Shown here: one piece after another, positions 50,941 through 56,791 of the stretch
Layout: the number at the start of each line of letters is the position of its first letter
How positions within the stretch are numbered: position 1 is the first letter of the stretch
Sequence record: MK327932.1
DNA from: Escherichia phage vB_EcoM_G2248
Reading direction: 5' to 3' (one strand)
Length of the DNA: 64,000 bases
Position numbers and translations under genes: made by a program
The notes under the pieces: model-generated
The model's input: the letters and a program-made list of their open reading frames with translations, nothing else
Database searches by the model: none
What the model was told of the DNA's origin: nothing

Positions 50941-51143
50941 TTACATTTAGGGCAATGCGGTTCTTTAATATAATACCCGTCTGTCTTTGGAACACTAACA
51001 GGAGCGGTTTTTATATTGTATTCAGTGAAACAACGAAAACAAGTTACGTTTTCTACAGACTGACGTTTCACCCAATCACCGGAATAGAGATCATTTTTAT
51101 TTGTCATATTCCACCACCACAATGTTAATGTCTGGAGTGGCAA
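50913..51143 (-). CDS. Cys-rich zinc-ribbon-like protein
   Basis: 76 aa; CFRCF...CPKCKC. Confidence 0.4.
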   Translation of the reverse strand: MPLQTLTLWWWNMTNKNDLYSGDWVKRQSVENVTCFRCFTEYNIKTAPVSVPKTDGYYIKEPHCPKCKCRLYWSHL

Positions 51144-51552
51144 TATTAATGATTTCTTCTACACATTCCCACTCAAGGCCACCGATACCGCAACCGATTT
51201 TAGGAATATAGAAAGGCTGTATAGCACCTTCAAAAACATCATTGAGAGCCTCAAATCCTTTCAGGATAGCACCATATTCAGCATTTGGACCCGGTCGGAA
51301 TTGGGTATAGAGATTAACCCCGCACCAATTATAACCATTAACTTGATGCGTCCAGACACTAAACCCACCCAGCTTTTCGACCTTACCGCGAGAAGTTTGC
51401 TTGTCAATCTCTAACGCTTGCGGGAACTCTTTCGCGATCTTCGCAGCAATACCAGCGCCCATAGTATGAAAACAATTACAACCATGAATTAAATGACCTT
51501 TTCCTTGTTTAAACAGGGCGATGAGATCGCCCTTTACAGTATCAATAATCAT
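51097..51552 (-). CDS. macro domain protein (ADP-ribose binding/hydrolase fold)
   Basis: 151 aa; VKGDL...HGCNCFHTMGAGIAAKI and IPKIGCGIGGLEWE resemble macro-domain glycine-rich loops. Confidence 0.6.
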   Translation of the reverse strand: MIIDTVKGDLIALFKQGKGHLIHGCNCFHTMGAGIAAKIAKEFPQALEIDKQTSRGKVEKLGGFSVWTHQVNGYNWCGVNLYTQFRPGPNAEYGAILKGFEALNDVFEGAIQPFYIPKIGCGIGGLEWECVEEIINIATPDINIVVVEYDK

Positions 51553-51934: not shown

Positions 51935-52525
51935 TCAATAGCGTTTAGTCTTAAGAATGCCTTTACTCTTTAGATGGTTGGCCTTTTTTAGTACGTCATC
52001 AGCATAACCTAATCCGGCTTTATAGTTCCATCCAGCATTGTAAGAAGCTAGCGCGAGTCGGATATTACCGTTTCGAACATCCAGCCAGTATGCTAACTCA
52101 TCCATCGCGTAGAATGCAGAAACCTCGCGATTCATGATAAAGTTGATAGTCTGGCGATCACTCATTTTAACACCGCGCTTTGCATTTTTCGCTTTCACCG
52201 TTTTAAGGTAATTTTGAAATAATCCATAAGCATGATGATTTTTCTTTGGTGCTAAGTTTGCACCCGCGCTTGATTCTTGCCATGCGATACCCGCCAGGAT
52301 GTGGCCTAAACCCTTTCCGTCATAGCGAATATTCGGATGGTCATTTTTCAACTTACCGCTTTTCTCGAATTGTTCGCCATATTGATAGGCGAAATGTAAA
52401 TTATCTAGTTGGTGTGCTGTAAAGTTGTCTATCGGCGCTTTTTTGATCGGTGCGCTAGTCGATGCGTGTGTAGCACCAACGGCTAGTGACAGACTCAATA
52501 CTATCGCTTTTAGAACTTTTAACAT
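51935..52525 (-). CDS. secreted lytic transglycosylase (SLT domain)
   Basis: 196 aa; signal peptide; SLT catalytic motif GIAWQESS and AYNAGWN. Confidence 0.65.
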   Translation of the reverse strand: MLKVLKAIVLSLSLAVGATHASTSAPIKKAPIDNFTAHQLDNLHFAYQYGEQFEKSGKLKNDHPNIRYDGKGLGHILAGIAWQESSAGANLAPKKNHHAYGLFQNYLKTVKAKNAKRGVKMSDRQTINFIMNREVSAFYAMDELAYWLDVRNGNIRLALASYNAGWNYKAGLGYADDVLKKANHLKSKGILKTKRY

Positions 52526-53039: not shown

Positions 53040-53375
53040 TTATCCTTTCTTAAACAAATTGCGAATCCAGTATACAAACGGGATTTCTTTAAACTTGAAT
53101 TTCTCTATAGTTAATTCTTTAGTAGCAAGATGAATACCATAAGCATCATGTGTCACGATATGCCATTTTCTATAGTCCAAATGTGAACAACCGTCTGGAT
53201 CTAGGTTAATAAGAGTTTCTCGCTCACTAGGATTATTTTTCCACAATTTTGTAATAGGATCGCACATAATTCGACCTAGCGTACCATGAATAATCTCACA
53301 ACGGTAAAGTTTTCCAGCAGTGAGATAGGCGCACCCGTCATAGTCGGTATAAACAAACACTTCTTTAATACTCAT
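53040..53375 (-). CDS. hypothetical protein (triplet family, CxHLD...W)
   Basis: track ORF overlaps promoter 53404-53432; ATG at 53373-53375 (MSIKEVF...). Confidence 0.45.
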   Translation of the reverse strand: MSIKEVFVYTDYDGCAYLTAGKLYRCEIIHGTLGRIMCDPITKLWKNNPSERETLINLDPDGCSHLDYRKWHIVTHDAYGIHLATKELTIEKFKFKEIPFVYWIRNLFKKG

Positions 53376-53403
53376 TTTAATACTCCTTTGTTTCGATGGG
53401 GGT

Positions 53404-53432
53404 ATATTACTACCCCCGTTTTGTTGTGTCAA
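53404..53432 (-). promoter_or_regulatory. early promoter cassette, stem-loop enclosing the -10
   Basis: TTGACA-N17-TAATAT within GGGGGTAGTAATATACCCCC. Confidence 0.5.
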
Positions 53433-53693
53433 CTACTTTTTCAAGATTTTTTTAATTGCGTTCCAAAGACCTTTATTCTCAGGTTGTTTTGGTTCTTCGA
53501 TCAGTGTCCATGTTCGACCGTCTAAGTGTGCACAATTTTTAAGACAAATAAAAATCTGGTGTCCCTTATCATCACGGATATAACCACTATTCGCAAATCT
53601 TTCATGTGGTGTATATTCATACAGTGTATTTGGTGTAATATACTTGCGGTTACTATAAGGTGTCATCACATACATCATGGTACTAACTCCCAA
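53433..53693 (-). CDS. hypothetical protein (triplet family)
   Basis: 86 aa; ...GYIRDDKGHQIFICLKNCAHLDGRTW. Confidence 0.45.
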   Translation of the reverse strand: MGVSTMMYVMTPYSNRKYITPNTLYEYTPHERFANSGYIRDDKGHQIFICLKNCAHLDGRTWTLIEEPKQPENKGLWNAIKKILKK

Positions 53694-53869
53694 CGATCAC
53701 CGCGAAGATGAGAACATCCACCATCAAGAAGTATCGTAATACGATAACCTATATCATCTTTGATGTAACCGATTGTCGGTGGATTTTCGTCGTCTCGTGC
53801 CGGGGTAAAATCATACATCTTTCCGGGCGTAATATCTTGTCCTTTATTACTATTGGTATAAACTTGCAT
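53675..53869 (-). CDS. hypothetical protein (triplet family)
   Basis: 64 aa; ...GYIKDDIGYRITILLDGGCSHLRGDRW. Confidence 0.45.
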   Translation of the reverse strand: MQVYTNSNKGQDITPGKMYDFTPARDDENPPTIGYIKDDIGYRITILLDGGCSHLRGDRWELVP

Positions 53870-53890
53870 TTTCTTAATCTCCTATATTAA

Positions 53891-54589
53891 CTAACCACGG
53901 GTATAGTGTTCCAGAACAACGGTCAGATGAATATATTCTAATAGATCTTTCCAAAAGTCAACATCTGGTTCTTCCGGCATACCGTTTTTCTTTGCCTCTT
54001 CACGCGCGAGTTTAACACGCTCGTAGAGATCTTTCAATTCTTCCCGCACATTATCAAAGGTTCTTTCTCCTAACTTACACGCTAAGATAGAAGAACGTCG
54101 CGCGAGCGGGAATTGTAGATCACCAGTTTGATAGATTTCAAGTAGCTGATAACCAACACGCAGAGCATGAGAAAGATCTTTCCAGTTACTGAAATACTTT
54201 TCAGATTTGGCTACCTGTTTCTTGAGATAACCAGACAAACCCCACATACCAACATGATAGAATTTATCGCGATGTGTTCGGATGTATTCCCATTCTCTGG
54301 AGGATTCGATCAACATGTTACTAGGCGCGTGCACCATATCAATAGCGCCGATATCACCTTTACATGCCAGATTGATAAACCGTTTTAGACTGAACATATT
54401 AACGTCAATATCGTCTTTGGTGTTCTTGATACCTTGACCGCTAGTGCTTTGGTCATAGTGTTCTTTCATCGATCCTAAGATAATTTCTTTCGCAGTCGGA
54501 ACAAAGATACCACGATAATCTTTATCGGAATTTTCAGTATCAAGGCCGTATAAGTGAGATCCGAAGACCATTTTAACCATTGTATGCAT
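53891..54589 (-). CDS. nucleotidyltransferase-fold protein (Pol-beta-like minimal NTase)
   Basis: 232 aa; hG[GS]x9-13DxD signature FGSHLYGLDTENSDKD, downstream acidic DIDV, helical C-terminal half. Confidence 0.5.
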   Translation of the reverse strand: MHTMVKMVFGSHLYGLDTENSDKDYRGIFVPTAKEIILGSMKEHYDQSTSGQGIKNTKDDIDVNMFSLKRFINLACKGDIGAIDMVHAPSNMLIESSREWEYIRTHRDKFYHVGMWGLSGYLKKQVAKSEKYFSNWKDLSHALRVGYQLLEIYQTGDLQFPLARRSSILACKLGERTFDNVREELKDLYERVKLAREEAKKNGMPEEPDVDFWKDLLEYIHLTVVLEHYTRG

Positions 54590-54638
54590 AATTAAACCCT
54601 CAGTTGATTAAGAGATTGCATCATATCATCATAAAACG

Positions 54639-54664
54639 AAAAAGCCAACCCTTTTCGGATTGGC
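54639..54664 (-). terminator. rho-independent terminator after the GrcA-like gene
   Basis: hairpin GCCAAUCC-GAAAAG-GGUUGGC + U5. Confidence 0.55.
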
Positions 54665-54675
54665 TTGATGAAAAA

Positions 54676-55092
54676 TTAGAGAGATTCGGTAAAGGTACGA
54701 GCGATAACATCACGTTGCTGGTCTGGAGTCAGACTATTGAAGCGCACTGCGTAACCAGAAACGCGAATTGTAAGCTGCGGGTACTTCTCAGGATTAGCAA
54801 CAGCATCCAGAAGAAGGTCGCGACTCATCACATTGATATTCGCGTGCTGACCACCTTCGACAACCGGAGCACCATTATCTACAATCACCGGACGGAAGCT
54901 AGTTGTGTGCAGTGCCAGCGAATCGACGTCTTCTTCGGTGATCACATGGTCTTCTGCGAAAGTTTTACTAACAATTACTTTAGCGCCGATCAGTGCTTTC
55001 GGTTCGGATACCAAAATCATAGGCGCGAAGTGTCCACCGATAATAGTACCTTTATGCTCACCTTTCATGATTTGAATTGCTTTAAATTCCAT
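54676..55092 (-). CDS. autonomous glycyl radical cofactor (GrcA/YfiD-like)
   Basis: 138 aa; C-terminal glycyl-radical signature [32 protein letters not shown]. Confidence 0.8.
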
Positions 55093-55780: not shown

Positions 55781-56356
55781 TTATTTTGGATCTGGGAAAT
55801 TCAATAGAGCATATTCTCCATAAAATTTCCTAGCTGCATTATCATAAGCGATTGCAGCTTCGATTTCTGTGTCATATTGTCCAAGAACATGTCTTTGTAG
55901 GTTGACCATTATACTAGCTCTCCATTTCTTACGCAAATCCTTCCTGTTACACTTACTAACACCCTTATACACACTAGAAAACTTTTTAGACTTCTTCTTT
56001 CTATTATGTTGATTTTGCGCGTCGGTTGCCTCCCTAAGATTTGGAGGATTGTTATTAGCAGGATTACCGTCAATATGATCAATTAATCTAACTTGCGTCC
56101 CATGTTCTAGAAACCAAACAACCCTATGCACGAATAGATGAACTCTAGGAAGACCGTCATCTCTACTATGCCAAAATCTAAGATGACCATCTTTATTTGT
56201 TCTGACTTTAACTAAATCGCCGTGTTTATATCTACTCCCTAATGGTCGTCCTTTGATAGCTTTACTATCGACTCTATAATATAAGATACCCTCTATATGA
56301 GCATATCTAAGTTTTATCTCGTTTTGTAGGGATTCATCCCAATATTTAAAAGCCAT
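55781..56356 (-). CDS. HNH homing endonuclease with C-terminal AP2 DNA-binding domain
   Basis: 191 aa; HNH motif IDHIDGNPANNNPPNLREATDAQNQHN; AP2-like YKGVS...WRASI...YDNAARKFYGEYALLNFP; AT-rich. Confidence 0.75.
   Translation of the reverse strand: MAFKYWDESLQNEIKLRYAHIEGILYYRVDSKAIKGRPLGSRYKHGDLVKVRTNKDGHLRFWHSRDDGLPRVHLFVHRVVWFLEHGTQVRLIDHIDGNPANNNPPNLREATDAQNQHNRKKKSKKFSSVYKGVSKCNRKDLRKKWRASIMVNLQRHVLGQYDTEIEAAIAYDNAARKFYGEYALLNFPDPK
55781..56356 (-). mobile_element. free-standing HNH-AP2 homing endonuclease gene
   Basis: domain architecture typical of phage homing endonucleases; compositional shift; own SD and a hairpin upstream. Confidence 0.5.
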
Positions 56357-56401: not shown

Positions 56402-56791
56402 TTATACCGGGTCTGGATATACCTTTTTATCGAGTTCCATATGCGGTCCGTCTTTAAAAGTAACCCAATCAACACCGCAGATAACAGGAACACCCAATTC
56501 TCGACCAGCTTGTTTAAATGCATCCGCGATCATGCGGTAGTATTTCATGTTCCATGTATCCTTATCTTTCGGATACGCTACAACGTCAACCGCGAAACCG
56601 TGAAGATGACGAGATTTCATAGTCTTAGATTTACCTTCCGCAACATATTTCTTTTGCGTTTCTAGACTACGTACACCTTCCGTAATACCAAAATCGACCG
56701 GAGTCAGTTCTAACGCACGATGAACGACTTTTACCAGGTCAGGATGCACACCAACAAGCCGATCTTTGCTTCTTTGAGATAATTTAAACAT
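56402..56791 (-). CDS. peptidase M15-type cell-wall peptidase (candidate endolysin)
   Basis: 129 aa; zinc-ligand pattern SRHLHGFAVD ... DGPHME as in L-Ala-D-Glu peptidase endolysins. Confidence 0.65.
   Translation of the reverse strand: MFKLSQRSKDRLVGVHPDLVKVVHRALELTPVDFGITEGVRSLETQKKYVAEGKSKTMKSRHLHGFAVDVVAYPKDKDTWNMKYYRMIADAFKQAGRELGVPVICGVDWVTFKDGPHMELDKKVYPDPV

Follow-up and report, generated by a model that had tools for sequence, protein, structure and literature searches.

The gene at positions 53891-54589 (minus strand) of the analysed stretch of Escherichia phage vB_EcoM_G2248 (64,000 nucleotides of sequence record MK327932.1, hereafter the window) is the Krischvirus orthologue of T4 nrdC.11, a gene that is already known and annotated. 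Its product of 232 amino acids (aa) is a compact nucleotidyltransferase (NTase) of the DNA polymerase beta (Pol-beta) type and belongs almost certainly to the RlaP family (PF10127), as indicated by the list of open reading frames (ORFs), Pfam, PHROGs, sequence alignments and an AlphaFold2 model. The best explanation as a whole, with an estimated probability of about 0.6, is that this RlaP-family enzyme adds nucleotides to RNA 3' ends and supports the tRNA repair carried out by PseT and RnlA.

The ORF listing contains exactly one minus-strand ORF at 53891-54589, which starts with ATG and encodes a protein with the N-terminus MHTMVKMVFGSHLYGLDTENSDKDYRG. Nucleotide comparisons of this region showed 96-98% identity to Krischvirus genomes, including RB49, Phi1, GEC-3S, kvi and others; Krischvirus (the RB49/Phi1 group) belongs to the T4-like Straboviridae. 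The Phi1 protein is identical to the window protein and is annotated as "nrdC.11, NrdC.11 conserved hypothetical protein", and the label "nucleotidyltransferase" is used in RefSeq and several other Krischvirus records. The nrdC.11 product of RB6 (336 aa), encoded between mobD and nrdC.10, is 46% identical to the window protein, and the overall identity to T4-type proteins is 45-46% across both conserved blocks. A first-pass annotation of this DNA could name no T4 counterpart, but one exists. NrdC.11 of T4 (PHROG 388) and the window protein share PF10127 and the same catalytic and C-terminal motifs, and both genes lie in the early-gene region of a T4-like genome. They differ in length, the T4-type protein having 336 aa with an internal module that the window protein lacks, and in surroundings, the T4-type gene adjoining mobD and nrdC.10 whereas the window gene has vs.6 on one side and, on the other, three small ORFs that separate it from regB. 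An intact copy of nrdC.11 is present in 58 Krischvirus genomes, and the gene is under purifying selection, with eight synonymous and no non-synonymous differences between the window and Phi1.

The sole Pfam match of the window protein is PF10127, "RlaP, RNA repair pathway DNA polymerase beta family", with a score of 53.6 bits (E=3.4e-14) against a gathering cut-off of 23 bits. The match is collinear, placing residues 7-191 on positions 24-198 of the 249-position model. PHROGs assigned the protein to phrog_388, "nucleotidyltransferase" (E=2e-79), and an NCBIfam profile search of the 232-aa protein gave no match. A search of a protein library clustered at 50% identity returned 3575 relatives at E<=0.001, of which 190 reached E<=1e-30, and PF10127 is present in all 120 of the homologues listed. 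Homologues are encoded in 1619 phage records, mostly of Straboviridae, 58 of which reach at least 95% protein identity and constitute the Krischvirus group. In a neighbour-joining tree, the window protein is nested among the long-form NrdC.11-like proteins. The number of relatives, the family score above the cut-off and the substitution pattern against Phi1 together confirm that the listed ORF is real. The novelty is low, as this accessory gene is already known and is widely conserved among T4-like phages; the chemistry of its family was described in 2025.

Alignment of 15 close relatives showed that G10, S11, D22, D24, D59, D60, D62, D84, H87, K137, H141 and R144 are invariant. Across 145 cluster representatives, G10, R144 and P161 are invariant, and S11, D22, D24, D60, D62, D84, K137 and H141 are conserved in at least 90% of the sequences. 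In a third alignment, one canonical RlaP encoded in an rtcB operon was set against compact forms from phages, T4-type forms and homologues from Bacillaceae, 12 proteins in total; G10, Y14, G15, S21, D22, D62, F71, K137 and R144 do not vary among them, and at least 90% conservation is seen for S11, D24, D60 and H141. Pairwise alignment with the canonical RlaP places GSHLYG...SDKDYRG of the window protein opposite GAHLYG...SDYDLRG, and D62 opposite the aspartate of an IDL motif. G10-S11, D22, D24 and D62 are assigned as the catalytic set because they are conserved in these alignments, the canonical RlaP included. Judged from the aligned sequences, the window protein has an intact catalytic signature of Pol-beta NTases, which consists of hG[GS], DxD and, on a neighbouring strand, a third carboxylate.

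The AlphaFold2 model, calculated from the 145-sequence alignment, has a mean predicted local distance difference test (pLDDT) score of 96.4 and a predicted template modelling (TM) score of 0.92. It shows an N-terminal alpha/beta NTase core with strands at residues 2-9, 23-30, 44-48 and 61-67, followed by a C-terminal helical domain with helices at 136-155, 165-172, 178-201 and, as the terminal helix, 210-230. D22 and D24 are located at the start of strand 23-30, and D60 and D62 around the start of strand 61-67. The conserved K137, H141 and R144 are carried by the helix that opens the C-terminal bundle. The first-pass annotation had read a Pol-beta-type NTase signature and a following helical domain from the sequence, and both are borne out: the GS...DxD residues are conserved, the helical domain is seen in the model, and no match to a non-enzymatic fold was found.

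Two Pseudomonas members of the family, PfRlaP and PaRlaP, whose genes lie between rtcB and rtcA, have been described in a preprint (Carruthers, Fatma and Huang, December 2025, PMC12776372). The enzymes add one or two nucleoside monophosphates or deoxynucleoside monophosphates to RNA 3'-OH ends, with a preference for Mn2+ or Co2+ and for the 5' half of a cleaved-tRNA mimic (PMC12776372). Among E. coli macromolecules only RNA is labelled, neither protein nor DNA; many RNAs are labelled, including rRNA-sized species, with little specificity for the nucleoside triphosphate (NTP), and dATP can be used (PMC12776372). RlaP partly restores the aminoacylation of a tRNA missing one anticodon-loop nucleotide before ligation, and the authors proposed that it puts back nucleotides excised by tRNA-cutting toxins prior to ligation (PMC12776372). 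A comparative study had likewise predicted that RlaP restores nucleotides removed by, for example, RloC before ligation, and reported that RlaP and RNA ligases are similarly distributed among jumbo phages (PMC7824862). The crystal structure of PfRlaP consists of an N-terminal NTase domain and a C-terminal helical domain whose terminal helix packs back on the NTase domain (PMC12776372). The window protein shares with Pseudomonas RlaP the PF10127 family, the N-terminal NTase domain, the C-terminal helical domain (which in the AlphaFold2 model ends in a helix) and the three conserved aspartates. The likeness in length is taken from a single canonical RlaP, that of an uncultured Nitrosospira locus (255 aa compared with 232 aa).

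By analogy with these two Pseudomonas enzymes of the preprint, nucleotide addition at RNA 3' ends is the activity that NrdC.11 can, on balance, be expected to have; RNA end modification was one of several functions listed by the first-pass annotation and is the one favoured here. In the proposed mechanism, D22, D24 and D62 would hold two divalent metal ions, probably Mn2+, and the enzyme would add one or two untemplated nucleotides to an RNA 3'-OH. During infection NrdC.11 would work with PseT (polynucleotide kinase/3'-phosphatase) and RnlA (RNA ligase 1), and the three would restore host tRNAs that defence nucleases had cut and stripped of a nucleotide, as in wobble-nucleotide excision of the RloC type. 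The ligation that follows could regenerate some functional tRNA.

The neighbourhoods of bacterial homologues were analysed by scanning one genome per bacterial species with the 15-sequence alignment, which gave 37 loci with relatives. Fifteen of these loci encode long NrdC.11-like proteins. Their neighbours include RtcB (two loci), a second, canonical RlaP (two loci), RtcA, Hen1 and an enzyme of the PolyA_pol/CCA-adding type; the other neighbours have a phage-like appearance, and most of the fifteen loci have no neighbours for RNA ligation or end healing. In the uncultured Nitrosospira contig CAADGK010000054.1 (locus L014, 5709-12274), RtcB, RtcA, an NrdC.11-like protein (323 aa, 43% identical to the window protein), the canonical RlaP of 255 aa, Hen1 and an AAA ATPase are encoded together. 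The two RlaP paralogues lying side by side suggest non-redundant roles of the two RlaP types. At a second locus (L013), the NrdC.11-like gene is followed by a SNF2 helicase gene and then by rtcB. In a contig of a Sulfurimonas metagenome-assembled genome (L034, 6995-9230), a gene for a 347-aa NrdC.11-like protein overlaps the start of a PolyA_pol/CCA-adding-type NTase gene by a few bases, and a single operon thus appears to encode two distinct NTases for RNA 3' ends. A chromosomal RlaP-like family of Bacillaceae (L017-L043), with Bacillus tequilensis (L022, 7950-8714) as an example, consists of proteins of ~250 aa that align collinearly with the window protein at 26-30% identity. This family keeps a KNTKDD(V/I)D motif.

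The partner enzymes of the proposed pathway are also found in the phages. Phi1 encodes PseT and RnlA at 127.7-130.6 kb, and the numbers of phage records with RnlA and with NrdC.11 are close in each host genus, with 636 versus 606 for Escherichia and 287 versus 285 for Klebsiella and equal counts for Shigella, Acinetobacter and Enterobacter; at the Krischvirus level there are 58 records of each. A role of NrdC.11 in tRNA repair during infection, drawn by analogy, fits with the homologue in the Nitrosospira operon, the presence of PseT and RnlA in the same genus and the purifying selection on the gene; it is put forward tentatively, at somewhat less than even odds.

Several observations weigh against RNA 3'-end addition in support of PseT and RnlA. 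The co-occurrence of RnlA and NrdC.11 is treated as weak evidence, since comparable counts would be expected for any gene conserved among T4-like phages; it may fit a shared pathway and equally a shared T4-like ancestry. In Phi1 nrdC.11 is not adjacent to pseT and rnlA but ~75 kb apart from them, and unlike the Pseudomonas genes, the phage-encoded window gene has no ligase gene next to it. None of the Bacillaceae loci has RNA-repair neighbours, the surrounding genes being varied and unrelated housekeeping genes. The sequence relationship to the characterised enzymes is distant. The window protein is ~22-25% identical to the canonical RlaP of the Nitrosospira locus, detectable mainly in the first ~90 residues, and the ~25% identity to canonical RlaP extends over the N-terminal 87 residues only. 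In the similarity network of the preprint, T4 NrdC.11 is assigned to PF10127 but falls in cluster 5, whereas the characterised RlaP enzymes are in cluster 1a, and T4 NrdC.11 is labelled there as "of unknown function" (PMC12776372). Conservation of the KYGxKGSR and YGxRA segments exceeds 90% in the clade, but the compact form has lost both, and its activity may therefore be altered or reduced. Finally, T4 can do without the stretch from nrdC.11 through mobD.3 under laboratory conditions (PMC9825161), and any role of NrdC.11 would hence be conditional on the host.

A rival reading is that the enzyme tails RNA 3' ends in the course of phage mRNA turnover rather than tRNA repair. Nucleotides would be added to the 3'-OH ends that arise after RegB cleavage and PseT dephosphorylation, providing a foothold for host 3'-exonucleases or otherwise marking the transcripts. 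In Krischvirus, nrdC.11 precedes regB by ~0.8 kb and probably shares a transcript with it, and the broad labelling of E. coli RNAs by RlaP, up to rRNA-sized species and with little NTP specificity (PMC12776372), would suit tailing of this kind. However, the proximity to regB is not conserved, as T4-type nrdC.11 adjoins mobD and nrdC.10. One or two added nucleotides would be a poor toehold for an exonuclease, and the close bacterial homologues sit with ligases (RtcB, Hen1) rather than with decay enzymes. Tailing in mRNA turnover is regarded as unlikely, though it is the rival that survives best.

The one distinctive trait of the window protein is its compact architecture. Most close relatives, like the T4-type proteins, have 300-350 aa and match the window protein in two stretches. 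Alignment showed that the window protein is ~100 aa shorter at the junction of the two domains, after the last helix of the NTase domain and before the helix with which the bundle begins. The absent module corresponds to residues ~133-240 of the T4-type protein and has an alpha/beta composition, with a helix, five strands and a long helix. In the T4-type protein the Pfam RlaP match stops at residue 134, whereas in the window protein it is collinear; thus, the module is an insertion relative to canonical RlaP. It is also absent from canonical RlaP itself and from the Bacillaceae homologues. Compact forms occur in at least three separate places of the neighbour-joining tree, represented by the window protein with P0002, by P0143, P0230 and P0247, and by P0153, and the groups differ in their breakpoints. 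Since the compact forms are scattered among long forms and have different breakpoints, the alignments suggest that the module was lost repeatedly, at least three times. P0002, P0143 and P0153 are all encoded in phage-like contigs. P0002 (234 aa) is 57% identical to the window protein and keeps all catalytic residues, and its contig is syntenic with the window, carrying genes for an M15 peptidase, a vs.8-like protein, a GrcA-like protein, an HNH endonuclease and RlaP as well as small ORFs. With this identity and the same neighbourhood, the compact form has been kept across substantial divergence. The ~100-aa module is dispensable for whatever function the compact form retains.

It is conceivable that the loss of the module and its flanking motifs crippled the enzyme and that the gene persists by linkage as a decaying remnant. 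The missing KYGxKGSR and YGxRA segments and the dispensability of nrdC.11 in T4 (PMC9825161) would be in line with decay. However, the differences from Phi1 are exclusively synonymous, the gene is intact in all 58 of the Krischvirus genomes mentioned above, and the syntenic sister P0002 retains the compact form together with every catalytic residue. The AlphaFold2 model is confident and shows no disordered scar, compact forms appear to have arisen independently at least three times, and canonical RlaP and the Bacillaceae homologues likewise do without the module. Decay is accordingly given a low probability, below that of mRNA tailing.

Comparison of the model with solved structures using Foldseek gave Hailong HalB (E=4.5e-5), kanamycin NTase, AadA/AAD(9), LinB and Tam41 as the best matches, each with a helical domain attached to a Pol-beta NTase core. 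With sequence identities of 9-16% and TM-scores of ~0.4, these are fold-level relatives rather than family members. Sequence searches of the PDB, with the single sequence (E<=10) and with the family profile (E<=1), found no solved relative. A profile and structure search had been suggested in the first-pass annotation; the outcome of the former is PF10127 RlaP, and of the latter HalB, kanamycin NTase and AadA at the level of the fold.

In the Hailong system, HalB synthesises poly-dA processively from a tyrosine primer and is paired with the HalA channel (PMC13434031). If NrdC.11 were a template-independent oligonucleotide synthase of this kind, it would act in counter-defence and not in repair, extending oligo(deoxy)nucleotides from a protein or RNA primer for use as signals or decoys; oligo(dA), for example, would keep a Hailong-type effector off by holding the HalA channel closed. 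HalB is the closest solved structure, and RlaP can use dATP (PMC12776372). However, HalB is absent from both sets of PDB matches and has no detectable sequence relationship to the window protein, and its structures (PDB 9dbh, 9dbi and 9dbj) align with only 13-16% identity at TM ~0.4. No partner of the HalA type is encoded at the window locus. The PF10127 score is clear, and for the members of that family tested so far RNA, not protein or DNA, is the acceptor and receives no more than one or two nucleotides. A HalB-like polymerase is highly improbable.

Equally improbable is a transferase for small molecules or proteins, of the ANT/KNTase or MntA type, that would adenylylate an antibiotic-like compound or a protein, for example neutralising a HEPN toxin: the fold matches to kanamycin, streptomycin and lincosamide NTases and the Pol-beta NTase core with a HEPN-like helical bundle shared with ANT(4')/KNTase, AadA and LinB favour it, but these matches are at fold level only (9-14% identity, TM ~0.4) and concern enzymes of small-molecule substrates, there is no ANT, MNT or HEPN match in Pfam and no HEPN match among the neighbours, the sole Rx4H of the protein (R107...H112) lies outside the C-terminal bundle with H112 not conserved, and PfRlaP left E. 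coli proteins unlabelled (PMC12776372). The protein contains no conserved Rx4-6H motif. PADLOC gave only a chance-level match to an unrelated CARF/HEPN model (E=0.032), and a reading as a defence system was abandoned on this result. Two candidate assignments were rejected. A cGAS/DncV-like nucleotidyltransferase (CD-NTase) found no CD-NTase or SMODS match in PADLOC or Pfam, and the neighbours are small ORFs, RegB and a GrcA-like protein. An MNT-HEPN toxin-antitoxin pair involves a minimal NTase of ~100-140 aa, compared with the 232 aa and fused helical domain of the window protein, and no neighbour matches HEPN. The toxin-antitoxin and second-messenger options raised in the first-pass annotation are dropped on these results.

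The expression signals around nrdC.11 were read from the sequence. The translation initiation region (54590-54606, minus strand) contains a GAGGG ribosome-binding site 7 nucleotides (nt) 5' of the ATG at 54589. Further upstream, a terminator scan and RNA folding identified an intrinsic terminator hairpin at 54642-54666 (minus strand), with a 10-bp stem and a 5-nt loop followed by UUUUUCGUUUU. Folding of 54666-54642 gave a free energy of -15.6 kcal/mol (z -4.74), and none of 200 shuffled sequences was equally stable; a terminator is annotated at the matching region in several GenBank Krischvirus records. This terminator belongs to the preceding vs.6 (GrcA-like) gene and is positioned upstream, not downstream, of nrdC.11. 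A sigma-70-like promoter candidate, TTGGCT-17 nt-(TG)TATGAT, at 54620-54648 (minus strand) matches the consensus at 9 of 12 positions with an extended -10 TG, and it overlaps the 3' arm and the T-run of the vs.6 terminator. It is weak evidence, since the consensus scan found 13 promoter-like matches in the region compared with 6.9 expected. A MotA-type middle promoter (GGCTTTT ~13 nt before TATGAT) is not claimed, the match to the MotA box being imperfect.

Downstream, the stop codon of nrdC.11 is separated from the next ORF (64 aa, 53675-53869, minus strand) by a gap of 21 nt (53870-53890, minus strand) with an AGGAG ribosome-binding site, and the terminator scan found no minus-strand terminator-like site between 53000 and 53891. 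The two genes are probably co-transcribed, given the short gap, the AGGAG site and the lack of a terminator. nrdC.11 thus probably heads a unit running on into three small ORFs and regB rather than forming an isolated cassette. The first-pass annotation had taken the gene for an independent unit flanked by promoter and terminator elements; a terminator and a promoter-like site do exist upstream, but that terminator is the one of vs.6 and the downstream one is missing.

The three small ORFs directly 3' of nrdC.11, all on the minus strand at 53675-53869 (64 aa), 53433-53693 (86 aa) and 53040-53432 (130 aa), are tandem paralogues with 34-42% identity and correspond to Phi1 ORF097, ORF096 and ORF095. 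They sit between nrdC.11 and regB, probably on the same transcript. Residues invariant in all three include C..HL....W near the C-terminus (GCSHL.G..W), and none of the three matches Pfam. On the other side of nrdC.11, vs.6 (54676-55092, minus strand) encodes a protein of 138 aa with a C-terminal glycyl-radical domain (PF01228, E=1.5e-15), a GrcA-like spare part for pyruvate formate-lyase. vs.6 also adjoins the RlaP gene in a divergent syntenic contig (L044), where a NUMOD4 and HNH_3 gene is present directly upstream of the RlaP gene. The window has its HNH_3 gene at a different site: an ORF of 191 aa with HNH_3 and AP2 domains, of the homing-endonuclease type, at 55781-56356 (minus strand), between the vs.8-like gene and a 129-aa gene (56402-56791). 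The Phi1 counterparts, vs.8 and ORF102, are adjacent with nothing in between, and the 191-aa ORF therefore looks like a strain-specific mobile insertion. Two other minus-strand genes annotated in Phi1 only as "conserved hypothetical" have recognisable domains, Tk.4 (51097-51552) a Macro domain (PF01661) and Vs.1 (51935-52525) a lytic-transglycosylase SLT domain (PF01464). No tRNA genes were found in the 64-kb window.

RNA repair was first discovered in T4, and host nucleases such as RloC have been proposed to defeat this repair by nucleotide excision. NrdC.11 may be the third component of the PseT/RnlA pathway and let T4-like phages defeat such nucleotide-excising anticodon nucleases; the odds are against this, but it is more likely than the HalB-like counter-defence role. 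The compact Krischvirus enzyme, with 232 aa and a confident model, would be a convenient minimal form for biochemistry and crystallography, and its contrast with T4 NrdC.11 would reveal what the extra ~100-aa module contributes. If NrdC.11 does fill this gap, the PseT/RnlA pathway gains a third member, and the arms race between phage and host one more step.

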